Shown here piece by piece: positions 33,846 through 52,938 of a stretch of DNA of 64,000 nucleotides. Within the stretch, counting starts at the first letter, position 1; every line of letters begins with the position of its first letter. Source of the DNA: an uncultured Erysipelotrichaceae bacterium (GTDB lineage: Bacteria; Bacillota_I; Bacilli_A; RFN20; CAG-826). The stretch lies in the NCBI GenBank assembly GCA_902800355.1, contig CADCEE010000004.1, positions 16,175 to 80,174 of the forward strand. Direction: 5' to 3'. The notes below the pieces were generated by a model. That model searched no databases and had not been told where the DNA came from. It was given only the letters and a program-made list of their open reading frames with translations. A program made the translations under genes and the position numbers.

Positions 33846-36719
33846 TTAACTAATTTGGCTTAATGTTCCAGTATAAGAGTTTTCTAAGACAAACACCGCT
33901 AAATTACCTTGTCCAGAAACAGATACACTTAAAGAACCATTATTAACTGGCTTTCTTTCTCCGGTTACTAAATTAACATAAGTACCATTAGGTAAGCCGG
34001 TAAATGTTGTGCTATTAGAAATAGCAACAGCGGCTAAAGAATCAATGTTTCCGCTTGTATATCTTCTAACAAAGGCCATATTATCAAAAGTGCTATATTG
34101 GCCCATAGATAAAGCAGGAACTTTTAATCTAATCTTATTAAGCATCATAAGATGCTTGGATAAAGTAGAATTTAAAGTATCTTCTACATTTCCACTAGCA
34201 GTATAACTACCAAATCCAGTCGCATTAACTGTACCTTCTAAATATTCTCCATAATAGGCTCTACCAGAATTAGATAGATTTTGATATTGATCTATTTTCT
34301 TGCCCTTCATAAATTCAATTTCCGAACCATAATAAACACAAGGCACTCCTCTAAAAGTAAACATTAAAGACATATTTTCTTTCCAAGCATCTGTACCTTG
34401 GTTATATCTTACTTCTTCTGGGTTGCCATCAGGAGCATAGTCATGTGAATCGACATAAACGATGTTATAAGTTGCATCGTTATAAACACTATCGTTTTGT
34501 CTTGCTACTTGATAAGCATCGTTAGCGTATTTAAAGTTCCAGTGCATGGCAAAATCAATAACCCCAAATCCGCTACTCTTAGAGTAGTCAGGAGTGTGAT
34601 AGGTATAATTATTACCTAAATAAACATTGTTACTTGTTGGATGACCAGCAGGGTTAATATTATCGTTCCAATTTTCTTCGGTAGAAGCTTCGTTAGTTTT
34701 TCTATCACCCCAAGCGTATTCTTTAGATTCTTTCCAAGTATAGAAACATGCTGAATCAGATCCAACATTATGGTTCCACACTCCACGTTCTCTATTACAA
34801 ACTTCACCAAACATGAAGAAGTTAGTATTTCCACATTTTTTAGCGATTTCGTATAATCCAGGAATTAGATATTTATTCATCGTTAATCGGGAAATATGTT
34901 TTACAGTATCCACTCTAAAAGCGTCTACACCTAATCTAATGAAATCTCCATATTTATCTACCAGATAATTAGCAACAGTTGGATTCTCTGTATTTAAATC
35001 AATACAATCTCCTGCCATTGAGCCAGTTTGTTCAATATATTGCTCATAACCCATACTCATTTCATGATGATAAATGTTATAGGCATCAGAAGAAGTTTTC
35101 ATCGCTTGAATTCTCGCTTGGAATTGGCCTTCACCATTTAAAGAGGTGTAATTACTAGGTAATAAGTGAGAATAATATGTACTAGGAGATAATCCGTTTT
35201 GAGTGCCGTTAAGGCTATCATAAGTAAACATTGGGAAAAGATTTTCTTCTCCTAAATTAGATGTATGATTAAAGACCACATCTAATACGATTTTCATATC
35301 TCGCTTATGCGCTTCTTTAATCACATCTGCGAACTTCACATCTTCACTTTCGTATCTTGGGTCGACTTGTGAAAAATTAATCGCATGATAGCCGTGATAA
35401 TCATATCCAGAAGCATTTTTCACTACTGGAGTAATCCAAATAGCGGTAAAGCCTAAGGCTTTAATATAATCCATCTTTTGAATTAGGCCTTTAAAATCAC
35501 CTCTCCACTCTGGATCATTTGCGTTATTATTAGCCCAGCATTTTCTATTATTAGAAGCGTCCCCATCATAAAATCTAGTGGTCATCGCAAAATATATAGA
35601 TTCTTGTCTAAAATCAGTTCTAACTCCAGTATAAGGATTAATTACTAATCCTTTATTATAGTCTTTAACCGCTGGAAGTTCGGTATAATCTTTAGCGGAA
35701 CTCACTACTTCAAAATTACCTTGTGGTAAATCACTAGTTGGGTCATCTCCAGAAGGTTTCTTGTTATATAAGCGGTTATTATAACACCAATAGTATCCCA
35801 CTTGAGTAACTGCTAAATTGCCAGTTTGTTTTTGACTACTGCCAACATTAAAGATGAGATTAAATGATGTATAAGATGAATCAAAATCATAAGTGTTCCA
35901 CTCATCATCATAACTACTCATCTGGTCTCCAGGCCAACTCTTTGTAATAGTGTTAACATTTCCACTATTTTCGCTCCAAGCATAAACATATGAATATTCT
36001 TCTTTATAAGCAAATACTTTAACAAAGTTGATTTCTGGTAAATCTTCTTCTTTTCCTTCCCCAGGGTCTTCAGGGTCAGGATCTGGGTCAATAGGCTTTT
36101 TAGTAACAGTTAATTTGCATACTGATTCAAATCCGCCATCAACAGAGGTGATTGTAATATCGGTTTTTCCTTCATTCAAAGCTTTAACCACTCCGTTACT
36201 AACGGAAGCGATATTTTCATCTTTAATAGTCCATCTCACTGTCTGATTATCCGCATTACTTGGATAAACCTTATAAGTTAATCTTTCTTCTTGTTCTTCT
36301 TGCAAAGTTAAAGTGGGTTTATCAAAAGCGACACTTGTGACATGAACTACAGTTCCTTGTTCTTCTTCGTTAACCACTACTCTACAAGTTGCTTCAAAAC
36401 CGCCATCAGTGGTAGTTGCTTTAATTAAAGCTACTCCTTCGCTATAAGTGGTAACATTTCCGTTAGCATCAACCCTCGCAGTTGAAGTTTCATCGCTTTC
36501 AATAGTAAATGATTTATCACTAGCGTTTTCTGGGCTAACAGTAACTTTAAGAGAATATGATTCTCCAACAGTTAATTCCACTCTATTTACGTCAAAAGAA
36601 ATGCCGGTGACATGAATAACAGGTGGTTCTGGAGGATTGTCTTTAGGTGTACTAGTGTTACATGCAGCAACTAACGCCACTAAAGGAAGAATTAAGAAAT
36701 TTAAAAACTTAGTTCTCAT
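33846..36719 (-). CDS. Surface lipoprotein alpha-amylase (GH13) with two Big_2 Ig-like domains and a probable starch-binding module
   Basis: Lipobox LVAAC. Two repeats (VTGISFD.../VTSVAFD...) are typical of Big_2. GH13 regions DVVFNHTS, GVDAFRVDTVKHI, FMFGEV, YVDSHD. Confidence 0.88.
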   Translation of the reverse strand: MRTKFLNFLILPLVALVAACNTSTPKDNPPEPPVIHVTGISFDVNRVELTVGESYSLKVTVSPENASDKSFTIESDETSTARVDANGNVTTYSEGVALIKATTTDGGFEATCRVVVNEEEQGTVVHVTSVAFDKPTLTLQEEQEERLTYKVYPSNADNQTVRWTIKDENIASVSNGVVKALNEGKTDITITSVDGGFESVCKLTVTKKPIDPDPDPEDPGEGKEEDLPEINFVKVFAYKEEYSYVYAWSENSGNVNTITKSWPGDQMSSYDDEWNTYDFDSSYTSFNLIFNVGSSQKQTGNLAVTQVGYYWCYNNRLYNKKPSGDDPTSDLPQGNFEVVSSAKDYTELPAVKDYNKGLVINPYTGVRTDFRQESIYFAMTTRFYDGDASNNRKCWANNNANDPEWRGDFKGLIQKMDYIKALGFTAIWITPVVKNASGYDYHGYHAINFSQVDPRYESEDVKFADVIKEAHKRDMKIVLDVVFNHTSNLGEENLFPMFTYDSLNGTQNGLSPSTYYSHLLPSNYTSLNGEGQFQARIQAMKTSSDAYNIYHHEMSMGYEQYIEQTGSMAGDCIDLNTENPTVANYLVDKYGDFIRLGVDAFRVDTVKHISRLTMNKYLIPGLYEIAKKCGNTNFFMFGEVCNRERGVWNHNVGSDSACFYTWKESKEYAWGDRKTNEASTEENWNDNINPAGHPTSNNVYLGNNYTYHTPDYSKSSGFGVIDFAMHWNFKYANDAYQVARQNDSVYNDATYNIVYVDSHDYAPDGNPEEVRYNQGTDAWKENMSLMFTFRGVPCVYYGSEIEFMKGKKIDQYQNLSNSGRAYYGEYLEGTVNATGFGSYTASGNVEDTLNSTLSKHLMMLNKIRLKVPALSMGQYSTFDNMAFVRRYTSGNIDSLAAVAISNSTTFTGLPNGTYVNLVTGERKPVNNGSLSVSVSGQGNLAVFVLENSYTGTLSQIS

Positions 36720-37194: not shown

Positions 37195-39336
37195 TTATAG
37201 AACTAGTTCAATAATAGAATGACCGTCTTTATAAAAGTATTTATGAGACTTAGTTAAATCCTTAACAATAATTAAACCAAATCCACCAGGAGCAATTTCT
37301 GAATGGAATTTATCTAGAAATTTCTCTTTATGATTTTTAAATGGATCATAATCTTTCCCATTAGAGGTGATAGTGAGTTTTAAATCGCCATTAACGTATT
37401 CAAAGTGGATATCGATAACTAAATCTTCTCTTTTTTCATAAGAAACAAGATTATTCACTAATTCATCAATAATAATACCTACAGATGATCTAGTTTTCTC
37501 TTCTAAATAAGAGAATGAATCATTAAATTTATCAACAATTTCGTTGATGATGGAATAATCTTTTTTCTCATAGTGGAGATCAAATTCCGCTTTTTTATTT
37601 CTAATAAGAATCATGGTGATGTCATCAAATTGTTCTTTCTTACCAATGAAGTCGTTGAGATTCTTATTAACTTTATTAATCACTTCTTCAAGTGGTAATT
37701 CACTTGTTGAGGCAATAGTCTTTTCAATTCTTTCATAGCCGAATTCTTCTTCACTTGCGTTAATGGATTCATTTAATCCATCAGTAAACATGAATAAGTA
37801 GTCTCCCTTATTAAACTTATGAGATTCTGCTTTAAATTCATATCCTTCTTCAACACCTAATACGATGTTGGATTCTCCGTCTAACTTCGTAACTTTATTA
37901 TCAGAAACAATATAAGGTTTTTCATGTCCTGCATTAACATATTTAATCTCATTCTTCTTAAAGTCAATGACACCGATAAATGAAGTGATGAATAATAATT
38001 CTTTATTATTCTTCGCTAGCATATTGTTCACACTATTAATGGCATCAACAAGATTATCATATGATTCAACAGCGGATTTAATTAATTCCTTGCCCTTCAT
38101 CATGAATAAGCTAGCAGGTATACCTTTACCAGAAACATCACAAATAGAAACAACTAATCGATGGTCATCTAAATAGAAATAATCATAGAAGTCACCACTA
38201 ACTTCTTTAGCAGGTTTAATATACGCTCTTAAAGAGCAATTATAATCATCACATTTGTTATTTGGTAAAGAATCAAGTTGAATCTTACTAGCAATCTCTA
38301 ATTCTGCGTTGATTTTTTCTTTTTCTTTCGCATCTTTCTTAATGATGTCAACATAGTTGACAATCTGGTCTTGCATTAAGATAAAGGAGTCTTCTAATGT
38401 CTTAATTTCATCACGAGATTTAATGTTTGGATTGATCGTTTTAAGTGGTTTATTAGCTTTTAGTTGATTAGAAACATCCACTGCGGCTTTATTTAGCTTA
38501 TTGATGTTTCTAACAAACATAAAATAAGATAAAACTGCATATAAAATAATGACCGCTAATCCACTACCTAAAAGGATCAATATCTCATTTCTTAATATTG
38601 GAGCGTAGTCACTTGAAACTCTACTAGTCTCATAAGCGGCAAATAAATATCCAATGGTCTCTACATCACCGCTATCATCGCTTTTAATCTCGATAAATCT
38701 AGTTTCATAAGACCCTAATCTATAACCTTTAATATAGCTATGTCCAATATCAAATATTTGATCAGTGGGTTTTAAATCATAATGACTACCAACGCAGAAA
38801 TAGAAAACATTCTTTTCCATGGATGTACCCATTCTTGAGTCGGTAATAAAAATAAAACGATTTGGATTAGTTGGGTCTTTCATCGCATAGAAAGTATATT
38901 GAGAAGCATAAAATGAGGCATTAAATAAAGTATCAGTTATATCGTTATAGACTCTTTTAAATTCAAAATAATCTTTGCTACCTGGAAGTCCTTTTGGATA
39001 AAAGTACGGATAAGCATTTTCAAATTCTTTCTCATAATCTTTAAAAGAGGAATAATTTGAAAGTTCAACATTTTTAACGTAATCATATCCTTCTATAACC
39101 TTGTCTCTCACAACTTCAAAAGAGTCAGTTTTACGGGTAGTAGAATCTAAAGCATAATAAGTATTAGCGTATTCTAAAGCAGCAATACCGTCGGCGTTTA
39201 AATCTTCTTTTGCTTTAGAGATCATGTTGTTATAACTAACAACAACAGCGACTGTACCCGCGATAAAAGAAGCGATTATTCCAAGCAAAATCACTTTTAA
39301 AAGAATTGGAAAATGTAAACGCTTCTTATCTTTCAT
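37195..39336 (-). CDS. Membrane sensor - PP2C (SpoIIE/RsbU-type) phosphatase - RsbW-like HATPase fusion protein
   Basis: Two TM helices flank a ~220-aa extracytoplasmic domain. PP2C motifs are ELEIASKIQ, SGDFYDY, CDVSGKG, FTDGL, DDITMI. The C-terminal ~130 aa carry kinase-like N box IDELVNNLVSY and G box GGFGLIIVKDL. Confidence 0.85.
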   Translation of the reverse strand: MKDKKRLHFPILLKVILLGIIASFIAGTVAVVVSYNNMISKAKEDLNADGIAALEYANTYYALDSTTRKTDSFEVVRDKVIEGYDYVKNVELSNYSSFKDYEKEFENAYPYFYPKGLPGSKDYFEFKRVYNDITDTLFNASFYASQYTFYAMKDPTNPNRFIFITDSRMGTSMEKNVFYFCVGSHYDLKPTDQIFDIGHSYIKGYRLGSYETRFIEIKSDDSGDVETIGYLFAAYETSRVSSDYAPILRNEILILLGSGLAVIILYAVLSYFMFVRNINKLNKAAVDVSNQLKANKPLKTINPNIKSRDEIKTLEDSFILMQDQIVNYVDIIKKDAKEKEKINAELEIASKIQLDSLPNNKCDDYNCSLRAYIKPAKEVSGDFYDYFYLDDHRLVVSICDVSGKGIPASLFMMKGKELIKSAVESYDNLVDAINSVNNMLAKNNKELLFITSFIGVIDFKKNEIKYVNAGHEKPYIVSDNKVTKLDGESNIVLGVEEGYEFKAESHKFNKGDYLFMFTDGLNESINASEEEFGYERIEKTIASTSELPLEEVINKVNKNLNDFIGKKEQFDDITMILIRNKKAEFDLHYEKKDYSIINEIVDKFNDSFSYLEEKTRSSVGIIIDELVNNLVSYEKREDLVIDIHFEYVNGDLKLTITSNGKDYDPFKNHKEKFLDKFHSEIAPGGFGLIIVKDLTKSHKYFYKDGHSIIELVL

Positions 39337-39347
39337 TAAAGCTCCTA

Positions 39348-39644
39348 TTATTTAACAGTTAAGATGTTATTAAATCCAGTGACTTTAAAGACTTCTTGAC
39401 AGACCGGATTTAAATTATGGATTTCTAAAGCTTTATTAGAGGCCGCTAAAGATTTCTTTAACGCTAGTAAAGCACGTAATCCAGCAGAAGAAATATATTC
39501 GAGGTCTTTAGCTTCGATGATCACTTTTGCTTCTTTAATTTCTTCCTTAGAAAGAGCGTCAGTGAATTCAACGGAAGTCACTGTATCAAGTCTTCCTTTT
39601 AGAGCTACAACAAGCTCTTCTCCGCGTTTCATACTAATTTCCAT
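39348..39644 (-). CDS. STAS-domain anti-sigma-factor antagonist (SpoIIAA/RsbV-like)
   Basis: 98 aa. DLEYISSAGLRALLAL contains the conserved phosphorylatable Ser context. AAGGAGA SD. Confidence 0.88.
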   Translation of the reverse strand: MEISMKRGEELVVALKGRLDTVTSVEFTDALSKEEIKEAKVIIEAKDLEYISSAGLRALLALKKSLAASNKALEIHNLNPVCQEVFKVTGFNNILTVK

Positions 39645-39648
39645 ATAT

Positions 39649-41406
39649 TTATTCTCCTTTGAGTTTTATTTCAAACACTGTGTTATTTAAGTTAAGTATA
39701 CGCATATAAGTCATCTTATCGGTAATATTTTTGATAAGTTTTAATCCACTTGTAGAATATTCTTCTTTCTCATCAAACTCCACTTTAGTCGGATCAAATG
39801 GCACTCCATCATCCCTTATTCTTAATAATAAGGTATCTTTGAAAAGTTTTAAATTAATATCAATATAATCGTGACTCTTTTTCTTATAGCCATGGTTTAT
39901 GATGTTATCCACCATCTCTTCAGCGGCAAGTCCCACTATTTGGCTTTCTCTATTTGGAATATTATGACTTTTGGCAAATTCAGTAATTTGTTCTGAAACA
40001 ATAGATGCGTTTTGTTCATTGTTATCTAACGAGACATCAAATGATTCAACATCAAGTTTCTCAAGCATGAAAATACCACTACATTTTTTTCGTTTGTTAT
40101 AGAAGTGGATGAAGATATAAACAATTATTACTGTCGCTACTTCATTAATCCAACATGCCATGCAATACCCCATAAGTCCGTTTGTGTGCAGCAACACAAG
40201 CGTTAAAGGTAAGACAATTATTAATTCTCTTAAAAATACAGTAACCATAGATGGAACTGTCTTATCGATGGTTGGATAGTAGTTAGTTGAGAATTTGTTA
40301 ATTTCATATGGGATAAAGGAAATAAGATAAACCCATAAGACAGAATTAATAGTAGCAATATCTCCAGAATAATCCGCTCCAAAGATCGCACAATACGCTC
40401 CTGGGAAAATCAAAACAAATAAAGAAATAAGGACAGTAATTCCAATGTTAATCCAGTAAATTTTTCTTGTTACTGATTTAAGTGAATAATAGTCTTTTTC
40501 TCCATAAAAGATGCCACACAAGTTAGGAATAATATTAAGCACTCCTCCACAAAGTAGGTCAAACAAGAACACCATATTTGAGATTAATCCATAGAGCACT
40601 AATTCATCCCCAGTAAATAATTTTCCGATAAAAATATTGACGATTAGCATTTGAATTGCTGTCAAAAACATATTAATTGCAGAAGCAGAGGTAGCCTTGA
40701 AAATACTCTTAGCCCCACTATTTCTAATATTAAAAGTTAAGGTTAACATTTTCTTTTTACTAGTTAAGTAGAAAATAGTAACAATCGCCCCCACTAAATA
40801 TCCTGCTCCAGTAGATAAGGCAGCACCTAACATTCCATATCCTGAATCTTTCATAACAGTAATAAGTAAGACTTCAAGTCCAACTTTTGCGGCGTTAGAA
40901 ACAATATAGAAAACTGATGATAATTTAGGGCTATTATCTACCGCCATAAAAGATCCAATTAACAACGCATAAGTAATAATTGGATCAGTTAATAAGAAAC
41001 CTAAAATATATTGTCTACAAAGTTCAGTATCTCCTCCAAATAAAGAGGCTAATGGTTCGGCAACAGGGAAAGCAATAAGAGCAAATAATATCGAAATTGA
41101 CATACCAACAATAATAGAGAAAGAGTATGCTTTTTTAGCGCCTATTACATCTCTTTTGCCTAGTAAGGTCGCAACGACTATCGCCCCTCCAATTCCTAAA
41201 GCGAATCCTGGAATTTGTACAATATATAAAATCGGCATCACTAAAGATGACGCACTAAGAGCGGTTGGTCCAAGATAGTTGCCAATTAAAATACCGTCGA
41301 CAAGTGAGCCGAACTGCATCGCAAAAATCATTAAGATTGAAGGAATTAAATAAGTAATGAATTTACGATTAATAAGTTTAGAATTTCTTTTTAATGTTGT
41401 CGTCAT
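39649..41406 (-). CDS. MATE-family efflux transporter fused to a C-terminal RsbW/SpoIIAB-like HATPase domain
   Basis: About 12 TM helices (aa 1-440) with a MATE-like pattern. The C-terminal ~140 aa (nt 39649-40074) carry N box EEMVDNIINHG, G1 RDDGVPFDP and GLKLIKNITDKMTY. The start ATG overlaps the NRPS TGA stop (ATGA). Confidence 0.8.
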   Translation of the reverse strand: MTTTLKRNSKLINRKFITYLIPSILMIFAMQFGSLVDGILIGNYLGPTALSASSLVMPILYIVQIPGFALGIGGAIVVATLLGKRDVIGAKKAYSFSIIVGMSISILFALIAFPVAEPLASLFGGDTELCRQYILGFLLTDPIITYALLIGSFMAVDNSPKLSSVFYIVSNAAKVGLEVLLITVMKDSGYGMLGAALSTGAGYLVGAIVTIFYLTSKKKMLTLTFNIRNSGAKSIFKATSASAINMFLTAIQMLIVNIFIGKLFTGDELVLYGLISNMVFLFDLLCGGVLNIIPNLCGIFYGEKDYYSLKSVTRKIYWINIGITVLISLFVLIFPGAYCAIFGADYSGDIATINSVLWVYLISFIPYEINKFSTNYYPTIDKTVPSMVTVFLRELIIVLPLTLVLLHTNGLMGYCMACWINEVATVIIVYIFIHFYNKRKKCSGIFMLEKLDVESFDVSLDNNEQNASIVSEQITEFAKSHNIPNRESQIVGLAAEEMVDNIINHGYKKKSHDYIDINLKLFKDTLLLRIRDDGVPFDPTKVEFDEKEEYSTSGLKLIKNITDKMTYMRILNLNNTVFEIKLKGE

Positions 41407-44400
41407 AAGTCGGTCCTCTCAAAGAAGCCAAGAGTGTCGAGCGACTCAATCGCATTCTTTAAATATTGATAATCAGTAATCGGCCACTTATATCCTAAGT
41501 GATAAAGGCTCTTATTAGTGAACTCATTATCAGAAAGAATAAAGCTGTGGGTATGCATATCACTACTAGAATAAGAGATTAAGGATGAGACTAACATGCT
41601 CTTAGAATCATCTAGCATCATTTCTTTCATCGATTTTAAGAATTCATCGTCGCTCACTATTTCAATTCCAAATCCAAGTTCATTTAAGACATAGATTATG
41701 TCACCCATCTGCACCATATGTGAGTTAGCAGAGTGATAAACAGTGAATTTAGATGGAGTTTTACTAAGTAAAAGAATAGTCTTAGCAACTTCATCAATTG
41801 GAGAGAAGTCAACTTCAACATCCATAGAATTCACTGGGAATTTCTTAAGCGTAGCGTAGCCTTTTAAGTCTCTCATAAAGCCGTTAGTAATAGAGTTAGC
41901 CTGGAATTCTCCGTCACTTTGTCTACTCATAAGATTACCAACACGGATGATCTTGCCGTCTAATCCATCTTTATCTACGGCTTCAAGTAATGCTTTTTCA
42001 GCATCAAACTTGGAGTGGACATATTTGTTAGATACGTCTTGACCAAAGTCTAACATATCTTCTTTCATCCTAAAGGATGAGTCGAATTTATTATCAATAT
42101 TTTCGCCCGCAACTGAAAGTGTAGAGATTTGAACCAATCTCACTTTCTTCTTTTTAGCGATTTCAATTAAGTTTTTCACTCCTCCAACATTAACGTGTTC
42201 AATAATGTCGTCATTAGCGAAGTGTTTCACTATTGCGGCAGAGTTAATAATTAAGTTGAAATCATAATCTTTAAGTTTTTCACCTAATGTCTCATCAGTG
42301 ACATCCCCATCAACAATAGTGACATATTTATCAACTTCCTCAGTTAAAGGAGAATCAAAATAGTAAGCAAGTAAGCCTAATAAACGATCTTTAGGATTGA
42401 GCTTACCGCCTCTAATTAAAGCGATAGTAGCAACCTTTTGATCTAATAACTCTTTTAAGATGTGGATACCTAAGAATCCTGTAGAACCGGTTAATAAAAC
42501 TTTACTAACTTTATATTCATCTTTTGTGTCATTAACTTCGTCTACAATATTATGGGCCAAACTACCTAGTTCAGCTTTTTGTTCTTTAGCTTCTACTTTA
42601 GTAGGCTCACTAGTGTCTACCCCTGAAAGAGAATTGATATGTTTTTCAAGTTCTAAAACAGTGGAGTAATCAAAGACGTCGCCATAGGCAATTGGTAAAC
42701 CCATATTTAAGGCAAGCATTGCCACTTTAGAAACGCTTAATGATGTACCTCCCATTTCAAAGAAGTCATCATCCACTCCGACATTATCTTTACCTAAAGC
42801 TTTCTTAAATAATGTTAAGAGTTTTTCTTCTAAATCATTAGAAGCAGATTTCACTTCTTTCTTTTCTTCCTTAACTTCAATCTCTGGAAGTGATTTCTTA
42901 TCAATTTTGCCGTTAGGGGTAAGTGGGAATTTATCTAACTGCATCACCACTTTTGGAACCATATATGGAGTTAAGTATTTACCCATATGTTCAAGTAATT
43001 GATCTTTATCAACTTGGCTTGAAGCAGTAAAGTATGCCGCTAAATAATCTCCTTCTGGGCTTTGTTTAACTAAAATAATGCTTCTAGTAACTGAGTTATA
43101 GGAGTTAAGGACTCTTTCAATTTCATCAAGTTCCACTCTTAAGCCTCTTAATTTCACTTGGTTATCAAGTCGACCAAAGAATTCAACGTTACCTTCGCTG
43201 TTGATTCTAGCCATATCACCACTTCGATAAGCTTTTAAGCCGTTAATTTCAATAAAGGCTTCTTTAGTTTTTTCTGGTAAACCCAAATAACCTAAACCAA
43301 CTGATTCGCCGGCAATAGTTAAATCACCAATAGCGTTGATTGGTAAGATATGTCCGTGTTTATCTAAAGTAAATACTTTAGAGTTAGCGACCGGTTTACC
43401 AATAGTCATATATTTATCTTTGACTAAAGCGTATGTTGCGGTAATTGTAGTTTCGGTTGGACCATATCCATTTAAGATATTCGCGTTAACGCCTAAACTT
43501 CTAAGTCGATTACATAGTTCCATAGGTACAGCTTCTGCACCCATATCTAGATATTTAAATCCCTTTAAAGCGTCCACGAAGACATCAATATCTAATAAAT
43601 TAGATACAAAGGATGGAGTCATGAACATATATTTCACATGGTTCTCTTTTAAAGTTTTAGCGAGTAACATTGGATTTTCAATTTCTTCTTCACTGGCAAT
43701 TACTGCGGTATAGCCGTGAGTAAGAGGCACAAATTCTTCTTGCAAAGAAGCGTCAAAAGATAAAGAAGCAAATGAACAGCTCACGCAGTCCTCTCCAATG
43801 TCGCGATAGCAAATTGTCGCTAAGTTAGAGTCATCTAAAACATAGTTAAGTAAATTCTTGTGAGCGATCATCACTCCTTTTGGTTTACCTGTAGAACCAG
43901 AAGTATAAATGACATAGGCCATGGAAGATTGAGGAATCTTAACATCAGGATTATTAATCTCTTTAGACTGTAAAAGATCTTCAATCGCTAAAGTCTTCAC
44001 TTTAGTGGATTTAATTAATTCTTGTTTTTGCTTAATAATTTCACGAGTGGAAATTAATAATTTAGAGCCAGAATCAGTAATAATATAGCTCACTCTTTCA
44101 TCTGGATATTTTGGATCTACAGGAACAAAAGCTCCACCAGATTTCGCAATACCTTGTCTTACAACATATGCTTCTTTAATTCGCGGCATAAACATCACTA
44201 CACAATCCGCAAGTTTCACGCCTTCTTTAATTAAAGCGTGCGCAACTTTATTGGCGGATTCGTTAAGTTCTTGATAAGTTAATTTGCCGTTTTTGGCCAC
44301 TACTGCCACTTTACTTGGTCTATCTATAGCTTGTTTTTCAACTAACTTATTAACAGTAATGTCTTTAGGCATTTCTACTTCAGTTTGATTGAACTTCTCA

Positions 44401-47400
44401 TATTGAGCTTTATCAAACTCAGGGAGGCAATTAATATCTTTGATATTCTTTTTAGTTAATAACTCATTTAAGACTAATTCATATAAGCGTTTAAAGGAGT
44501 CAATTGTGTCTTTAGTGTACACGGCTTGATCCCATTCAAAATGAGCGCGATATTTCTCGTTTTCTAAGAAAATATCTAAACCAAAATCACTCTTAGGAGT
44601 TTCACTTTCCATTAAAATTGGAGTGACTTTAAACCCCCCTAAAGTTTCAAAATTAAAGTTATCTCCTTGATAAGCGAAAATAACATCCGCTTTTAAATTA
44701 TAGTCATTAGCGACATCGCCAAAGGAATATAAATCGTTTTCTTCTAAGCCAGAAAGTAATTCTTGCATTTGTTTAACTTTTGATAAAACTAAATCTTCTT
44801 CCGTATATTTGATATAAACCGGTAAGGTTTTAACAAACATGGAAACACTATTCATCACTTTCGAAGATTTTCTACCGTTATAAATGGTTTCATATAAGGA
44901 ATCATCTTTATAGATGAATTTTGATAATGTAAAAGCAAAAGCGAAGTTAAATAAGGCGTTATTAGTTAGCTTGTTAGACTCAACGTATTTCTTTACTAAC
45001 TCGTTGTCTAAATCTAATTCATAGTCGATAGATTGGAGTTTAGAGATTTCTTCAACCTTTAAATCCTTTTTAAGAGTGTATTCCCCGTCTACATCCTTAA
45101 GAACTTCGTTATAGTAGGCTTTAGCCTTATCTAATTTAGGAGAGGCTAAATCTTCTTTTTCTTGAAGCGCCACTTCATAGCCTGTATAGGTTTCTGGAGT
45201 TAATTTTTCTCCTGAATAAGCTTTATCAATATCACTTAAAATAATAGCTTCAGAAGTGCCGTCACATAAAATGTGATGGAAATCTAAGAAGAGATAGTTT
45301 TCTTTTCCTTCATAAATCTCTACGCGGTATAATTCACCATCTAAAATCGAGAACGGTCTCACTAAAGATTTAATATCAATTTCTTTTTTAAGAATTTCCA
45401 CTTTAGCAGGGTTACTATTTCTTCTAGCGACAATATCCCCACTATCATTCATATGTAAGATAGATTTTAAATATGGATGGTTATCAATAGTTTGACTAAC
45501 CGCTTCTTTTAATTTGGCTAAATCCATCTTTTTATCTAACTTAAATAAGTAAGGGATATTGTAATTAGTGCTATTAGGTTTAGAAACGCATTCAACAAAT
45601 ATTCCTTCTTGAGTTTTAGTAAGAGGATATTCATCTAAAACTTCAAAAGTCTTATCGTCTTCTTTATTTGCTAAAAATTCCGCTAAAGAAGCAATTGTGG
45701 AATGTGCTTTTAAATCACCATTTTCAACAGACTTGTTATATTTCTTTGATAAAAGAATAGTAAACCTAATAGATGATACTGAAGTTAATCCTACTTCAAA
45801 GATGTCATTAGTGACACCAAATTGGTCATGACCTAATACACCTTTTAAGATATCAAAGATATCTTGTTCAGCAGCGTTTCTCGGAGCAACCATTTCTTCA
45901 ACTTTAAGTTCAGGAACTGGTAAAGCTCTCTTATTAACCTTTTGATTTTGGTTAAGAGGAATCTTATCAATCTGCATTGTATAAGCAGGAACCATATAAG
46001 GTGGTTTTTGCTCTAAGATGAAATTATTAAGTTCTTCAACATTAATCTTTTTATCGCTAACTACATAAGCCACGATATATTTCACCCCACTAGGGTCGGT
46101 AAAATCTTTTACAGTGGCGTCTTTAATATCTTTAAAGTCTCTAATCACTTTTTCAACTTCAGAAAGTTCCACTCTAAAGCCACGGATCTTTACTTGTCCG
46201 TCTTTTCTTCCGATAAAGTCAATTGTCCCATCTTCTAATAGACGCACAATGTCACCGGTTTTATATAACTTTTCAAATTTTTCTTCTTTGGTAAACCAGT
46301 TAGATAAGAACGCTTCGCTATTTTCTTTTTCTCTATTTAAATAGCCTCTAGCAACTTGAGGTCCAGAGATATATAGTTCTCCACTAGTTAAAATTGGTAA
46401 TCTCTTTTTATTCTTGTCTAAGATATAAATCTTATAATCACTCAAGCATTTTCCAATCGGGATACGGTGATAGAATTTGTCCACTAATTGGAGGGTGCAG
46501 AAGACTGTACCTTCGGTAGGTCCATATAAGTTATAGAATTTATAGCCTTTAGGAGGATCCATAGGTACTAACTTTTCTCCTCCAACAGCGAAATATTTTA
46601 ATGATTTCACTTCAATCTCACTAGCGAATTGTCTACCAACTTGAGTAGTCATAAAAGCGTGAGTGATTTGATTTTTATTATAATATTCACCTAATTCCAC
46701 TAAATTGAGTCTCATCTCATCAGGAATGATATAGACAGTGGCCCCACTAGTTAATGATGGGTATAAATCCATCATATCTGCGTCAAAGCCATAACTAGCA
46801 TAGGCTGCACTTCTATTACCGACGCCTAGATTAAATTCTTGGCGGTAATATCTCACAAAACTAAAGATGTTGCCATGCTCTAACATCACACCTTTAGGAA
46901 CTCCTGTGGAGCCAGAAGTATAAAGCATGATAAATAAATCTTTAGGGGATGGTCGAGTTTTAATTTCTGTATTATCTTTTAAAGATAAAAGTTCATCAGT
47001 AAATAACTCTTTACCTTTAAAGTCATCCACTAAATCATTAAGTTCTCTATCTCTAATTAAGATAATGGCACTAGAGTCTTTAACCATGAAAGTTAATCTA
47101 TCTTTTGGATAAGTTGGGTCTAATGGCTGATAAGCTGCTCCAGACTTGATAACACCTAAAGAAGCTAAAACGATATATTCAGATTTCTTCACTAAAATAG
47201 AAACAACTTTCTCTTTTTTAGCTCCTAATCTAATTAATTCATTAGCGATTCTAGTAGAGATCTCATCAACTTCCTTATAAGTGTACTTTTTATCTTTAAA
47301 AACTACCGCCACTTCGTTAGGATGTTTTTTCACTACATCTAAGAAGTCATCTAAGATGGTTTTACCATCTTCAATATATGGGAAATTGGTATTATTAAAG

Positions 47401-48635
47401 GAATCAAGTAATTTAGTTTCTTCTTCGTCTAATAAATCAATATCAATAAGTCTTTCTTTCTTTAAGAATTCTGACATCACCACTTCATACATTTTAATGA
47501 TGTGTTTAATTGTGGACTCATTATATAAATCAGCACGATATTCCACCCAGATAATATATTTACCTTCTAAACGATGAAGTTCGACACTGAGTTTTTCTTT
47601 GCCATCTTTTCTTAATAATGGAGTAACTTCAAGTAATTTACCTTGATATTCACCAGAATAGAAATAATCACCTTGATAAGAGAATAAGACATCCGCACTT
47701 ACTCCAAAGTCTTTATTCATATCCGCAAAAGGATAGATGTTATGCTTAACATTATCAATTTGTTGTGCATTTGTTTTTAACAAATAATCTTTAACTTTAT
47801 CTTCGTCAGTATAGCTTAAATAAAGTGGATAAGTTTTAACATATGAACCTACACTCCTAGCGACGCTTTCATCTCTTCCGTTATGTACCGCTAAGAATAA
47901 AGCCTCGTTTTCCATATTAATCTTACTTAATAAGTAAGAGAACGCACCTAAGAAGAAGGAAGATGTTTTAATACCTAGTTTCTTAGTCAAAACTTTAACG
48001 TCTTTATCAGTAACATCTAAAGGAACACGGATATTGCCCCAAGAAACTTCTTTATCTTGTTTATCTTCTACTGGGGTAGAGTCAGTTTCAACTCCTCCAA
48101 CTAACTTTTCATAGTAATCTTTTGCTTCAATATATTTTTTAGACTTCAAGTCTTTTTCTTCTTTACTCGCAAATTCATTCGCATCAGATTTTTCAACTTC
48201 TAATTTCTTGCCCTCAAGAGCTTTTAAGAAATCACTTATAAAGATATGAATTGAAGTTCCGTCCATAATAATGTGATGGAAATCAAAATAGAAAACATAT
48301 TCATCTTTTACTCTGTAAAGTTTGAATCTATATAGGTGTTTATTAGTTAATTCATATGGTTTTGAATCAATCTTCACTTCCTTAACTTCTTCATAAGGGA
48401 GTTTGATTTCTTCTTCTTCGATGTGTTTAGTGATATTTCCTTCTTCATCAATGGATAAAACAGTAAATAAATAAGGATGAGCCTCAAAAACTGCTTTTAA
48501 GGCGTTAGCGACTTGTTCTTTAGTAACACCTCTACCTAAGTTAATCGTATTAGCGAGGTTATATGCATCTCCTGAATTTAAAGAAGAGATATATAATCCT
48601 TGTTCACTTTTAGATAATGGATAATGTTTATTCAT
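41403..48635 (-). CDS. Bimodular nonribosomal peptide synthetase, C-A-T-C-A-T-R (terminal thioester reductase)
   Basis: C1 FHHIIMDGTS (~nt 48262-48282). A1 LYTSGSTGVPKG (~46888-46925), YKTGD, GRKDGQVKIRGFRVEL. T1 FEVGLTSVS (~45790). C2 FHHILCDGTS (~45260-45285). A2 IYTSGSTGKPKG (~43876-43912), YRSGD, GRLDNQVKLRGLRVEL. T2 FEMGGTSLS (~42740-42760). R domain LLTGSTGFLG (~42470-42500) and YVHSKFDAEK (~41995-42028). Confidence 0.93.
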   Translation of the reverse strand: MNKHYPLSKSEQGLYISSLNSGDAYNLANTINLGRGVTKEQVANALKAVFEAHPYLFTVLSIDEEGNITKHIEEEEIKLPYEEVKEVKIDSKPYELTNKHLYRFKLYRVKDEYVFYFDFHHIIMDGTSIHIFISDFLKALEGKKLEVEKSDANEFASKEEKDLKSKKYIEAKDYYEKLVGGVETDSTPVEDKQDKEVSWGNIRVPLDVTDKDVKVLTKKLGIKTSSFFLGAFSYLLSKINMENEALFLAVHNGRDESVARSVGSYVKTYPLYLSYTDEDKVKDYLLKTNAQQIDNVKHNIYPFADMNKDFGVSADVLFSYQGDYFYSGEYQGKLLEVTPLLRKDGKEKLSVELHRLEGKYIIWVEYRADLYNESTIKHIIKMYEVVMSEFLKKERLIDIDLLDEEETKLLDSFNNTNFPYIEDGKTILDDFLDVVKKHPNEVAVVFKDKKYTYKEVDEISTRIANELIRLGAKKEKVVSILVKKSEYIVLASLGVIKSGAAYQPLDPTYPKDRLTFMVKDSSAIILIRDRELNDLVDDFKGKELFTDELLSLKDNTEIKTRPSPKDLFIMLYTSGSTGVPKGVMLEHGNIFSFVRYYRQEFNLGVGNRSAAYASYGFDADMMDLYPSLTSGATVYIIPDEMRLNLVELGEYYNKNQITHAFMTTQVGRQFASEIEVKSLKYFAVGGEKLVPMDPPKGYKFYNLYGPTEGTVFCTLQLVDKFYHRIPIGKCLSDYKIYILDKNKKRLPILTSGELYISGPQVARGYLNREKENSEAFLSNWFTKEEKFEKLYKTGDIVRLLEDGTIDFIGRKDGQVKIRGFRVELSEVEKVIRDFKDIKDATVKDFTDPSGVKYIVAYVVSDKKINVEELNNFILEQKPPYMVPAYTMQIDKIPLNQNQKVNKRALPVPELKVEEMVAPRNAAEQDIFDILKGVLGHDQFGVTNDIFEVGLTSVSSIRFTILLSKKYNKSVENGDLKAHSTIASLAEFLANKEDDKTFEVLDEYPLTKTQEGIFVECVSKPNSTNYNIPYLFKLDKKMDLAKLKEAVSQTIDNHPYLKSILHMNDSGDIVARRNSNPAKVEILKKEIDIKSLVRPFSILDGELYRVEIYEGKENYLFLDFHHILCDGTSEAIILSDIDKAYSGEKLTPETYTGYEVALQEKEDLASPKLDKAKAYYNEVLKDVDGEYTLKKDLKVEEISKLQSIDYELDLDNELVKKYVESNKLTNNALFNFAFAFTLSKFIYKDDSLYETIYNGRKSSKVMNSVSMFVKTLPVYIKYTEEDLVLSKVKQMQELLSGLEENDLYSFGDVANDYNLKADVIFAYQGDNFNFETLGGFKVTPILMESETPKSDFGLDIFLENEKYRAHFEWDQAVYTKDTIDSFKRLYELVLNELLTKKNIKDINCLPEFDKAQYEKFNQTEVEMPKDITVNKLVEKQAIDRPSKVAVVAKNGKLTYQELNESANKVAHALIKEGVKLADCVVMFMPRIKEAYVVRQGIAKSGGAFVPVDPKYPDERVSYIITDSGSKLLISTREIIKQKQELIKSTKVKTLAIEDLLQSKEINNPDVKIPQSSMAYVIYTSGSTGKPKGVMIAHKNLLNYVLDDSNLATICYRDIGEDCVSCSFASLSFDASLQEEFVPLTHGYTAVIASEEEIENPMLLAKTLKENHVKYMFMTPSFVSNLLDIDVFVDALKGFKYLDMGAEAVPMELCNRLRSLGVNANILNGYGPTETTITATYALVKDKYMTIGKPVANSKVFTLDKHGHILPINAIGDLTIAGESVGLGYLGLPEKTKEAFIEINGLKAYRSGDMARINSEGNVEFFGRLDNQVKLRGLRVELDEIERVLNSYNSVTRSIILVKQSPEGDYLAAYFTASSQVDKDQLLEHMGKYLTPYMVPKVVMQLDKFPLTPNGKIDKKSLPEIEVKEEKKEVKSASNDLEEKLLTLFKKALGKDNVGVDDDFFEMGGTSLSVSKVAMLALNMGLPIAYGDVFDYSTVLELEKHINSLSGVDTSEPTKVEAKEQKAELGSLAHNIVDEVNDTKDEYKVSKVLLTGSTGFLGIHILKELLDQKVATIALIRGGKLNPKDRLLGLLAYYFDSPLTEEVDKYVTIVDGDVTDETLGEKLKDYDFNLIINSAAIVKHFANDDIIEHVNVGGVKNLIEIAKKKKVRLVQISTLSVAGENIDNKFDSSFRMKEDMLDFGQDVSNKYVHSKFDAEKALLEAVDKDGLDGKIIRVGNLMSRQSDGEFQANSITNGFMRDLKGYATLKKFPVNSMDVEVDFSPIDEVAKTILLLSKTPSKFTVYHSANSHMVQMGDIIYVLNELGFGIEIVSDDEFLKSMKEMMLDDSKSMLVSSLISYSSSDMHTHSFILSDNEFTNKSLYHLGYKWPITDYQYLKNAIESLDTLGFFERTDL

Positions 48636-49225
48636 AACCTTTCCTCCTTGATGTTGATTTCAAATGGTGATTCATTTTCTCTAGTGACACAAATCACTGA
48701 GTCTAAATATTTAATTGTTTTTGATCGATATTTATTATTTTTATAGCTCTTCACGTTATTTATTGGAATTGAAGGAATGTCTTTAATCTTTTCTTTTATT
48801 CCTGTTCCAATACATTTAGTGAGCGACTCTTTATTAGTCCAGACTTCATAGAAAGATTTTTCATCTTTAATATATTCTTTTTCTTCTTTAGAAGAGATAT
48901 ATTCTATTAAGTCATCTTCTACTGGTCTTATCTTTTCTATATCCACTCCTATGGGGACATCATCTTTTATAAAGACTACACATCCTTTGGAGTGAGAAAT
49001 ATTAAAGAAGCAATCTTTACTAATCGGCTTACCATAAGAGTTAAGTGAATATTCCCCTATATATTTGTTTTTTAAAATAAGTGAGACTGCTTTTTCTTTT
49101 TTGGTTTCCTCTAGTTTATATCTAGATAACTCCATAATATTTTCTTCACTTAAAAACGAGGATGATAAAAGATCTTCAAGCGATAATATATTAGAATCTA
49201 CGAACAATAGATTAAGAATAATCAC
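48632..49225 (-). CDS. 4'-phosphopantetheinyl transferase (Sfp-type)
   Basis: GVDIEKI and WTNKESLTKC motifs. The TGA stop overlaps the NRPS ATG (ATGA). Confidence 0.85.
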   Translation of the reverse strand: MIILNLLFVDSNILSLEDLLSSSFLSEENIMELSRYKLEETKKEKAVSLILKNKYIGEYSLNSYGKPISKDCFFNISHSKGCVVFIKDDVPIGVDIEKIRPVEDDLIEYISSKEEKEYIKDEKSFYEVWTNKESLTKCIGTGIKEKIKDIPSIPINNVKSYKNNKYRSKTIKYLDSVICVTRENESPFEINIKEERL

Positions 49226-49314: not shown

Positions 49315-49725
49315 TTAAAAAGCGACGCTGAAGGAAGTTTGTGAACCAACATAGGCAACGTTATTGTGAGAGCCGTATTTACCGACTAAATTCTTGCCTA
49401 ATTCTTCCTTAGCACTATCAAACAGACGAATGTTATCGCCAGTTGTGACGAAACTAGAAGCTTGATCAGCGTTTCCAAAGAAGAATGCTAACAAGAAGTC
49501 CAAGTTATCTCCTTCTCCTTTAGTGCCATAAACAGCATCAACTAATTCAAAACCTTCAAATGTAAATCCTTTGTATCTTTCCTTAGCTTGTTCAGCTGTA
49601 TAAACAGTTGTTGAATAGCCACTACCAGCGAGTTTGCTTTTAACAGAACCTGAAGATTCGCTAGCGCCACAAGCGGTTAAACATAAAGAACTAGCAAATA
49701 ATAATGATGCAAATAGTTTTTTCAT
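49315..49725 (-). CDS. Small lipoprotein of unknown function
   Basis: Start taken at MKKLFASLLFASSLCLTACG (lipobox LTAC), with a GGAGG SD 7 nt upstream. Confidence 0.7.
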   Translation of the reverse strand: MKKLFASLLFASSLCLTACGASESSGSVKSKLAGSGYSTTVYTAEQAKERYKGFTFEGFELVDAVYGTKGEGDNLDFLLAFFFGNADQASSFVTTGDNIRLFDSAKEELGKNLVGKYGSHNNVAYVGSQTSFSVAF

Positions 49726-49800
49726 AATTTGACCTCCGATAATATATGAGTTGATGGATATATTATACAATAGCAATCGTCATAAATGTGTCACAAAAAG

Positions 49801-50727
49801 TCACAAATCACCAAACATAAATTCATTAATCCATTTTTTTATACATTTAAGTTGCCCTGGTGTATGAAAATAATGATCTCCATTTTTTAATATTGTCAAT
49901 GAGCAATTATGGGCACTAGCAAAGCTAAATATCGACTCATGATCCACAAGTTTATCATTTTGTCCATAAAGAATATGTGTCTTAACATCCCAATGATCAA
50001 CGTTATCTAAAGACTGATAAAAATCAAAGGAAATAGCCTGACCATTTTCAAGAACGATTATTTTTTCATTTTTGAATCTCTCTAAGGTAATGCTGTATTT
50101 TTTCATCATTTTATCAATAATTTTTCTCATATTAACTAACGGAGATATAAAGAAAGCTTTTTTTATTTTGAACGACGATAAATATCTATATGCATAAAAT
50201 GCACCAATTGAATTTGCTATTAGATAGACATTCCTATATTTTTTTGATATTTCACTAAATTCGTGAATGATTTTATCTTTAACTTCCCAAGGGTTGCCGT
50301 CATCATAATCTAGACCGATTACATCATATTTATTTGCAAGAAATGAATAAAAATTAGCTTCACCACTATTACCGTATAATCCGTGTATATAAACAAGGCA
50401 TGAATCTTTTTGTGGTTTCGTTGTTTTTTCAATTAATTCATCTATTTTTTCAAACTCTTTTTCAGTATTATCAAACAAATCTTTTGCACTAAGCATATAT
50501 TCTTTTAAAAGAACCAAAATCTTTTGATACGACATATCTTCTAATCCAGATTCAATTTTATTGATAGTCGATTTATGTGCGTAGCCTAAAGAATCCGCAA
50601 ACTCTTGCTGGGTAAGTCCTCTGTCTTTTCTAATCTTTTTTATTTTTAGTCCAAATTCATTCTTCATATTGATTTTTATAACTGTTTTTGTTTTAATATT
50701 TTTGCAACCGGTACGCGTTGACTCCAT
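49801..50727 (-). CDS. XRE-family HTH domain fused to an alpha/beta-hydrolase domain
   Basis: HTH LKIKKIRKDRGLTQQEFADSLGYAHKSTINKIESG. Hydrolase part has VYIHGLYGN, nucleophile elbow ANSIG, Asp in GQNDKLV and His in NGDHYFH. The start may instead be the ATG at 50667. Confidence 0.75.
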   Translation of the reverse strand: MESTRTGCKNIKTKTVIKINMKNEFGLKIKKIRKDRGLTQQEFADSLGYAHKSTINKIESGLEDMSYQKILVLLKEYMLSAKDLFDNTEKEFEKIDELIEKTTKPQKDSCLVYIHGLYGNSGEANFYSFLANKYDVIGLDYDDGNPWEVKDKIIHEFSEISKKYRNVYLIANSIGAFYAYRYLSSFKIKKAFFISPLVNMRKIIDKMMKKYSITLERFKNEKIIVLENGQAISFDFYQSLDNVDHWDVKTHILYGQNDKLVDHESIFSFASAHNCSLTILKNGDHYFHTPGQLKCIKKWINEFMFGDL

Positions 50728-52828: not shown

Positions 52829-52938
52829 GATAGCTCCTCCATAATACTTCATTTTTATTATAAATTAAAAATGACTATTAGACAAACCCCTATTTATAGA
52901 CTATGAAAAAAGACCCTTTTGGGTCAATCATTTTCATC

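Follow-up and report, generated by a model that had tools for sequence, protein, structure and literature searches.

Why should a MATE transporter end in a domain of the kind found in anti-sigma factor kinases? The question is raised by one gene in a 64,000-nucleotide stretch of DNA (the window; contig CADCEE010000004.1, positions 16,175 to 80,174) from an uncultured Erysipelotrichaceae bacterium, in which a 12-helix pump runs on in the same open reading frame (ORF) into a GHKL ATPase/kinase domain. Partner-switching modules, which consist of a STAS protein, an RsbW-type kinase, and a PP2C phosphatase, are textbook regulators of sigma factors; only a few cases are known with enzymes or secretion machines as their targets. 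We favor, at a probability of roughly 0.55, the reading that the gene is part of a partner-switching module whose anchor is an exporter for a peptide-aldehyde-type nonribosomal peptide synthetase (NRPS) product, with the pump, not a sigma factor, as the likely output. The fusion gene and its parts are located in the window as follows.

39649..41406, minus strand: MATE-GHKL fusion gene, one frame, 585 aa; stop codon at 39649-39651
40087..41406, minus strand: MATE body, aa 1-440, 12 transmembrane (TM) helices, DinF-type (Pfam MatE, phmmer, AlphaFold2 (AF2)/Foldseek)
40048..40086, minus strand: linker, aa 441-453, KCSGIFMLEKLDV, with an A7 run inside it at the TM12/tail junction; predicted local distance difference test score (pLDDT) ~90
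39652..40047, minus strand: GHKL domain (HATPase_c_2, RsbW/SpoIIAB-type), aa 454-585 (Pfam, Foldseek)
39886..39927, minus strand: N box, AAEEMVDNIINHGY, aa 494-507, with E497 and N501 at the aligned positions of SpoIIAB E46 and N50
39784..39819, minus strand: G1 box region, IRDDGVPFDPTK, aa 530-541; D532-D-G534 corresponds to SpoIIAB D81-E-G83, the second Gly is replaced by Pro
39733..39759, minus strand: reduced G2 box and start of the next helix, YSTSGLKLI, aa 550-558, with G554 as the sole conserved residue

Pfam profiles identified both domains in the fusion ORF: MatE (PF01554) in two stretches with 88.7 bits, and HATPase_c_2 (PF13581) on aa 466-569 with 55.8 bits (E 6e-15, gathering score 27.4). 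In NCBIfam, MATE models matched the body, and the tail matched SpoIIAB (TIGR01925), RsbW, and RsbA, all below threshold (28.6 bits against an equivalog cut-off of 135). A first-pass annotation, made from the letters of the DNA, had described an ORF continuing for ~140 aa past the last TM helix, and this is what the translation gives: the end of the pump, VYIFIHFYNKRKK, lies at aa 429-441 in a single frame with the tail, and the interval 39649-40074 that had been assigned to the latter comprises aa 445-585 and the stop codon. The N box and the G1-like IRDDGVPFDP (aa 530-539) were likewise recovered in frame. The proposed G2-like segment SGLKLIKNITDKMTY is also in frame (aa 553-567) and is canonical only in part, as the GGxG is cut to [ST][SG]G.

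The closest solved relative of the pump body by sequence is DinF-BH (4lz6, E 7.6e-21, phmmer). An AF2 model of the full-length protein, built from a 52-sequence alignment, had a pLDDT of 91.1 and a predicted template modeling score (pTM) of 0.89, with 12 long helices at pLDDT >90 in the pump body and pLDDT ~90 for the linker region (aa 441-460). Foldseek matched the model over ~440 residues to PfMATE, VcmN, and DinF-BH with target-normalized template modeling scores (TMt) of 0.81-0.84, and to ClbM with 0.69. None of the solved MATEs among the Foldseek matches carries a C-terminal signaling domain or extends past about 450-490 residues; for this reason, the architecture is unusual in comparison with characterized pumps. 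A freely floating tail would be incompatible with the pTM of 0.89, because MATE residues account for only 0.75 of the chain, and the GHKL tail is thus predicted to be held in a defined position against the cytoplasmic face of the pump by rigid docking. The conserved loop YGEKDY (aa 301-306) was considered as a family-specific docking site and was dropped, since it resembles what we take to be a generic MATE motif following TM2 and TM8. From its family membership and its position in an NRPS operon, the pump would be expected to catalyze the cation-coupled export of a small molecule.

A separate AF2 model of the tail (25-sequence alignment) reached a pLDDT of 76.6 and a pTM of 0.73. Its best match in the PDB was SpoIIAB (1l0o_A, Foldseek E 4e-9, TM-score 0.74; also 1th8, 1til, and 1tid), to which the tail is ~20% identical in sequence; further matches were RsbW from B. 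subtilis (6m36, 6m37), UsfX from M. tuberculosis, the RsbW domain of Rv1364c, and SiaB. The absence of a GHKL fold, which would have spoken against the first-pass annotation, was therefore not observed, and the layout of an anti-sigma serine kinase that it had recognized is borne out as RsbW/SpoIIAB-type by profile and by predicted fold. Across 85 tails of the family, the N-box residues E496 and E497 were present in 85/85 and N501 in 84/85, and in the G1 region D532 was found in 84/85 and G534, F537, and P539 in 85/85 each. In a set with overall identities down to 20%, E496, E497, N501, D532, and G534 were kept in at least 90% of the sequences. Judged by this conservation, the putative Mg2+ and adenine ligands of the tail are under strong selection. 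The G2 region is reduced: GGxG has become [ST][SG]G, of which G554 is kept in 83/85 tails, a helix begins at the YSTSGLKLI segment in the AF2 model, and the ATP lid lacks ~7 residues relative to the GHKL paralogue linked to PP2C described below, so that neither a canonical G2 box nor a full-length ATP lid is present. The tail is placed outside the anti-sigma factor equivalogs because it departs from them both in this G2 box and in the lack of a conserved sigma factor gene in or near the cassette. By profile and model evidence, it is an RsbW/SpoIIAB-type GHKL domain on a bona fide DinF-type MATE.

An A7 homopolymer (40085-40091, minus strand) lies precisely on the TM12/tail junction (...AAC AAA CGA AAA AAA TGT...), where A8 in place of A7 would bring in a stop codon, with an in-frame ATG 14 nt further on. 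The first-pass annotation had raised the concern of a frameshift or a chimeric join, which is laid to rest by homologues that have differing junction sequences and keep a single ORF. The fusion is real, because homologues at 60-94% and at 20-50% identity alike retain both domains in one ORF of ~580-600 aa; a frameshift or chimera at the A7 run was ruled out by this conservation. The linker residues G444, M447, and E449 are conserved as well. As a separate observation, a +1 error at A7 would give a MATE gene plus a 139-aa RsbW-like ORF starting from M447, so that the site could easily be misannotated by gene callers or in long-read assemblies; the 140-aa database entry P0121 begins at M447.

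How widespread the architecture is was addressed in protein clusters covering 5.8 billion proteins. More than 120 clusters were 60-94% identical to the window protein. PF01554 and PF13581 were both present in all but one of the 120 clusters listed, and the length was 570-600 aa in 116 of these, the shorter ones appearing truncated. The few clusters with names are called 'hypothetical protein' or 'ATP-binding protein' and derive from metagenome-assembled genomes (MAGs) of Erysipelotrichaceae or Bacilli. With the 141-aa tail as the sole query, HMMER, run exhaustively, returned 216 representatives at E<=1e-10. Among the best 150 tail relatives, 66 were at least 550 aa long and all of them (66/66) were MatE+HATPase_c_2 proteins, indicating that the closest relatives of the tail are other MATE tails and not free RsbW proteins. 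The short matches with >60 aa before the tail and no detectable MATE look like fragments, as TM-like segments precede the tail in 18/19 of them; no clear case of a stand-alone soluble version of this tail subfamily was seen among these 150. In a locus scan over one genome per GTDB species with a 12-sequence alignment, 264 loci with the fusion were obtained, almost all in rumen or gut MAGs, from Erysipelotrichaceae/Bacilli, Acholeplasmatales, Christensenellales, Ruminococcus, Lachnospiraceae, Acutalibacteraceae, and Selenomonadales. Sequence identity was 72% for the tail versus 67% for the pump body in 115 close homologues, and 37% versus 28% in a diverse set. On this comparative evidence, the architecture is real, widespread, and under selection. 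The earlier description of it as unusual thus holds against characterized pumps; the gene is no one-off, its family having hundreds of members. A full-text search of the literature returned nothing on MatE+HATPase_c_2 proteins, and in the literature searched the fusion architecture is undescribed, its parts being individually known.

Some members of the family depart from the common layout. Two MATEs, P0130 (786 aa; L085:888-3248) and P0204 (754 aa), carry two tandem HATPase_c_2 domains, and P0130 is NRPS-linked with a STAS gene downstream. P0230 (937 aa) combines MatE and HATPase_c_2 with a transglycosylase domain and may be a gene-call fusion. Four distant MatE+HATPase_c_2 proteins, P0238 (L084), P0195 (L086), P0260 (L087), and P0217 (L088), are 20-25% identical to the window protein; aldose epimerase, GGDEF-EAL together with FtsW/RodA, and TatD are encoded near them. 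The fusion appears to be older or broader than its association with NRPS genes, because these distant members sit away from NRPS, STAS, and PP2C genes.

In the window, the fusion gene is the third of five on the same strand, in the order PPTase, NRPS, MATE-GHKL, STAS, and a membrane PP2C that carries another GHKL domain. The partner-switch trio (STAS, GHKL, PP2C) is thereby encoded in consecutive genes. The other four genes are:

48632..49225, minus strand: 4'-phosphopantetheinyl transferase (PPTase), 197 aa, first gene of the cassette (Pfam ACPS E 8e-12)
41403..48635, minus strand: NRPS, 2410 aa, C-A-T-C-A-T-R with terminal reductase (Condensation x2, AMP-binding x2, PP-binding x2, NAD_binding_4)
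39348..39644, minus strand: STAS protein, single domain, 98 aa, anti-sigma antagonist type (Pfam, TIGR00377)
37195..39336, minus strand: membrane PP2C, 713 aa (SpoIIE Pfam E 6.7e-43; HATPase_c_2 E 8.6e-7)

The STAS gene begins 4 nt past the stop codon of the fusion gene, and its product was recognized by Pfam (E 1.6e-13) and by TIGR00377 with 56.2 bits, above the cut-off of the latter. Its Ser53, which lies in the conserved D/S-S-x-G-L loop (Y-I-S-S53-A-G-L-R; codon at 39486-39488), aligns with Ser58 of SpoIIAA (1auz) and Ser56 of RsbV (6m36_B), and was invariant in 70/70 STAS homologues from related loci. The PP2C gene follows 11 nt past STAS. Its 713-aa product comprises TM1, an extracytoplasmic stretch of ~215 aa, TM2, a HAMP-like segment (weak match), SpoIIE/PP2C at aa 390-579, and HATPase_c_2 at aa 609-704. 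The best solved relatives are Rv1364c (3ke6), which has the same PP2C-then-GHKL order, SpoIIE, and SiaA (6k4e); SiaA was also the top NCBIfam match, below the cut-off. The extracytoplasmic domain (38581-39231, minus strand; aa 36-252) had no Pfam match and diverges far faster than the rest of the cassette, being 10-20% identical in loci where the MATE is ~50% identical, as is typical of ligand-sensing domains. With 25% identity to each other (E 3e-7), the operon's two GHKL domains are paralogue-like. The PP2C-linked one has the G2 GGxG in 53/54 sequences and the G1 Asp in 26/54, with Ser at this position in the window. PADLOC gave no anti-phage defense match for the MATE-GHKL, STAS, or PP2C protein.

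The PPTase and NRPS genes overlap by 4 nt, as do the NRPS stop and the MATE start (ATGA). The reductase NAD_binding_4 domain was assigned to aa 2048-2287 of the NRPS by Pfam, and from this domain logic the operon product should be a reductively released, probably N-acylated, dipeptide aldehyde that is exported. Reductase-terminated clusters of this type have been linked to peptide aldehydes that inhibit host proteases. Conservation of the cassette was surveyed with iterated hidden Markov models, derived from the window proteins, in 83 related loci. An NRPS gene was directly upstream of the fusion in 78/83; of the five remaining loci, three are cut by contig ends, and two (L053, L082) have upstream sequence with no NRPS match. 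The PPTase was found in most loci. Where at least 3 kb of downstream sequence was available, STAS and PP2C were both present in 47/63 loci and STAS only in 4/63. In Ruminococcus loci, STAS or PP2C is located upstream of the NRPS, so that cassette parts persist through changes in gene order, as they also do in Lachnospiraceae; in four loci the PP2C-linked GHKL has a gene of its own (~135 aa). At the loci inspected, neither the cassette nor its surroundings contained a conserved gene for a sigma or transcription factor, although a sigma factor may be encoded elsewhere; the flanking genes vary from locus to locus. A promoter/terminator scan over the operon gave fewer promoter-like sites than shuffled sequences and no convincing terminator. 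Full-text literature searches returned nothing on STAS/PP2C genes in such NRPS clusters.

One Lachnospiraceae locus (L083:7998-17312) contains two MATE-GHKL genes. Between and after them are encoded a cyclic nucleotide monophosphate-binding protein, STAS, a GNAT acetyltransferase, PP2C, and a separate 136-aa GHKL protein.

How could these proteins work together? In the reading that we favor, the GHKL tail of the pump would bind the co-encoded STAS protein and phosphorylate it at Ser53 with ATP/Mg2+, and the membrane PP2C, governed by its extracytoplasmic sensor and HAMP-like segment, would remove the phosphate again. STAS occupancy of the tail would set pump activity, and the transporter would thereby stand in for the sigma factor as output of the switch. 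We prefer a version in which STAS binding relieves an auto-inhibitory contact between tail and pump, by analogy with RsbV freeing sigma-B from RsbW. The adjoining STAS and PP2C genes, the invariant Ser53, and the placement of the tail in the AF2 model support the proposal, already part of the first-pass annotation, that the cytoplasmic face of the pump carries a module which binds or phosphorylates STAS. Both the binding and the phosphorylation of STAS by the tail we infer from this context, as we do the sign and direction of control, the product of the operon, and the substrate of the pump.

Several observations weigh against this regulation of the pump by STAS through its tail. The pTM is an indirect gauge of tail-pump docking. 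ATP binding or catalysis by the tail may be impaired, because G2 is reduced to a single Gly and the lid is shortened. Of the two kinase candidates, the tail keeps the adenine Asp (84/85) with a degenerate G2, and the PP2C-linked GHKL keeps G2 with the Asp in only 26/54; the latter, with its perfect G2 box, could be the real STAS kinase. Neither STAS nor PP2C was nearby in 12/63 loci with at least 3 kb downstream, and L023 and L024, whose fusion proteins are 62-63% identical to that of the window, as well as several Selenomonadales loci, show only NRPS, MATE-GHKL, and PPTase within the available sequence. No NRPS, STAS, or PP2C gene was found beside the distant members at L084, L086, L087, and L088, on contigs that are short (2.4-6.9 kb).

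One alternative, which we regard as possible if unlikely, is that the tail acts independently of STAS as a regulatory or structural domain, such as an ATP/ADP-sensing or pseudokinase module that gates or stabilizes the MATE. STAS and PP2C-GHKL would then form a self-contained switch with another target, similar to Rv1364c or SypE/SypA. The degenerate G2 box and the short lid would be in line with such a role, and since the PP2C protein carries its own GHKL, the switch has a kinase, a phosphatase, and STAS even if the pump is left aside. Moreover, the N-box and G1 residues are kept in the 12/63 loci and four distant members that have no STAS/PP2C nearby. On the other hand, STAS and PP2C accompany the fusion in 47/63 loci from several orders despite changes in gene order, the closest structural relatives of the tail are STAS-binding kinases, and the two GHKL domains in the operon are related like paralogues.

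A second alternative reverses the wiring: the pump would serve as the sensor, its transport state (substrate load or flux) would control the tail kinase, and STAS would act elsewhere in the cassette. Unphosphorylated STAS might, for instance, bind the NRPS or the PPTase and so couple synthesis of the reactive aldehyde to its export. In favor of this, the AF2 model predicts a rigid coupling between tail and pump, and the NRPS, PPTase, and pump are the only non-signaling proteins conserved alongside the switch. Two inputs are plausible because the PP2C protein has its own extracytoplasmic sensor, and partner switches that target enzymes are documented for SiaABCD (PMC8457831) and Anabaena HenR/All4160 (bioRxiv 10.64898/2026.04.08.717354). 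Yet nothing points to a contact between STAS and the NRPS, classical systems have their output on the GHKL protein and not on STAS, and the proposal is as hypothetical as STAS-dependent control of the pump itself. We therefore consider it doubtful. The same low expectation applies to its fullest form, in which the fusion would be the founding example of a transporter-embedded partner switch: the pump cycle is read by the pump's own kinase domain and STAS phosphorylation couples aldehyde synthesis to export. If true, it would be a post-translational checkpoint at which synthesis waits for export, with an additional extracellular input via the sensor PP2C, and a sigma-factor module would have been repurposed for self-protection in a natural-product pathway that is widespread among gut/rumen Bacillota.

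It is improbable that the tail is a membrane-tethered anti-sigma factor from which unphosphorylated STAS frees a sigma factor to control transcription of the cluster. The tail does have the fold and motifs of SpoIIAB, RsbW, and UsfX, and a STAS antagonist and a PP2C are co-encoded, but no sigma gene is conserved in or near the cassette at any locus inspected, and the flanks differ. An artefact, in which a length error in the A7 run (A8 would give a stop and then an in-frame ATG) or a chimeric assembly merged a MATE gene with a small RsbW-like one, is hardly credible: hundreds of independent assemblies, at identities as low as 20% and with junctions that differ in sequence, show the same single ORF, and the linker is conserved and confidently modeled.

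Outside the cassette, a 153-aa ORF without a Pfam match (49315-49776, minus strand) is located upstream of the PPTase gene, followed by a gene for a 308-aa protein (49801-50727, minus strand) with an N-terminal HTH_3 (XRE-type) and an alpha/beta-hydrolase-like domain, which may regulate transcription locally; at the corresponding position in L001 and L002, neither is conserved. The flanks encode a 957-aa alpha-amylase that has a starch-binding module (CBM26) besides two Big_2 domains (33846-36719, minus strand) and a 540-aa Endonuclease_1 protein with a Big_2 domain (51230-52852, minus strand). Both are probably secreted and fit a starch-degrading Bacillota host from the rumen or gut.

In L002 (14358-17688; also in L003 and L016), a second partner-switch-like set directly follows the NRPS-MATE/GHKL-STAS-PP2C cassette. 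It consists of a 97-aa STAS protein, a 384-aa fusion of STAS with an APH-type (PF01636) kinase-like domain, which is unusual in its own right, and a 620-aa SpoIIE+HATPase_c_2 protein. After this set come a radical-SAM/SPASM enzyme, an ORF of 127 aa, and an ABC exporter of the C39-peptidase type; together these look like a cluster for a ribosomally synthesized and post-translationally modified peptide.

What makes the locus relevant is that the kinase-type partner forms one polypeptide with a MATE exporter, and that the conserved NRPS cluster encoding it occurs in many rumen and gut Bacillota. Post-translational control of exporters of secondary metabolites is, to our knowledge, largely unknown. 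If STAS-dependent control of the pump holds, the cassette would represent a compact genetic system for regulated MATE transport and a new output class for partner switching, and it would provide a handle to turn the export of microbiome metabolites that are difficult to detect in culture on or off. The conserved residues E497, N501, and D532 of the tail and Ser53 of STAS make the hypothesis directly testable.

With which known systems should the module be compared? Dipeptide-aldehyde/pyrazinone NRPS clusters of gut Clostridia were reportedly described by Guo et al. in Cell in 2017, and Schneider et al. are said to have described the ruminopeptin 'rup' cluster of Ruminococcus bromii. The cassette shares with such gut clusters (see the review PMC12327764) a two-module NRPS, the terminal reductase, and the PPTase, as well as hosts among gut/rumen Bacillota including Ruminococcus and Lachnospiraceae, whereas the clade of the window comprises Erysipelotrichaceae-like rumen Bacilli. 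With ClbM from the colibactin pathway, DinF-BH, and PfMATE, the pump has the 12-TM MATE fold in common, and ClbM is likewise encoded inside an NRPS cluster; in contrast to the protein studied here, these transporters stop shortly after TM12 and have no C-terminal signaling domain. In SLC26/SulP-STAS fusions and in MlaB-MlaF of the MlaFEDB complex, a STAS domain is part of, or bound to, a transporter and influences how it works (PMC8256260, PMC7367683). The fusion is their mirror image: here the transporter, a MATE instead of an SLC26 or ABC protein, carries a domain of the STAS-binding kinase type, and STAS is a free protein.

With the SpoIIAB/RsbW and SpoIIAA/RsbV pairs (1l0o, 1th8, 6m36), the tail and its neighbors share the GHKL fold, the N-box Glu/Asn, the G1 Asp-x-Gly, a separate STAS protein with the phospho-serine at the same position, and a co-encoded PP2C. 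They differ in the covalent attachment of the tail to a 12-TM MATE, in a cassette without a sigma factor, in a G2 box down to one Gly, and in the shorter ATP lid. Rv1364c, the PAS-RsbU-RsbW-RsbV fusion of M. tuberculosis (3ke6), has the PP2C-then-GHKL order of the 713-aa neighbor, and both Rv1364c and V. fischeri SypE/SypA combine kinase-like and phosphatase domains in one protein with a STAS partner; in the cassette, however, the phosphatase is membrane-anchored with an extracytoplasmic domain, an additional GHKL domain is present on the transporter, and STAS is a separate protein. SiaABCD of P. aeruginosa and HenR/All4160 of Anabaena likewise use a membrane/HAMP PP2C, a STAS-like switch protein, and an RsbW-like kinase, and their output is an enzyme or machine and not a sigma factor (PMC8457831; bioRxiv 10.64898/2026.04.08.717354). 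There, the STAS-like protein acts on the output: SiaC binds the diguanylate cyclase SiaD (PMC8457831), and All4160 controls a glycosyltransferase (bioRxiv 10.64898/2026.04.08.717354), whereas here the kinase-like domain is itself part of the transporter. In its proposed logic, the module thus most resembles the partner switches without a sigma factor, namely SiaABCD, SypE/SypA, BtrUVW, and Anabaena HenR/All4160.

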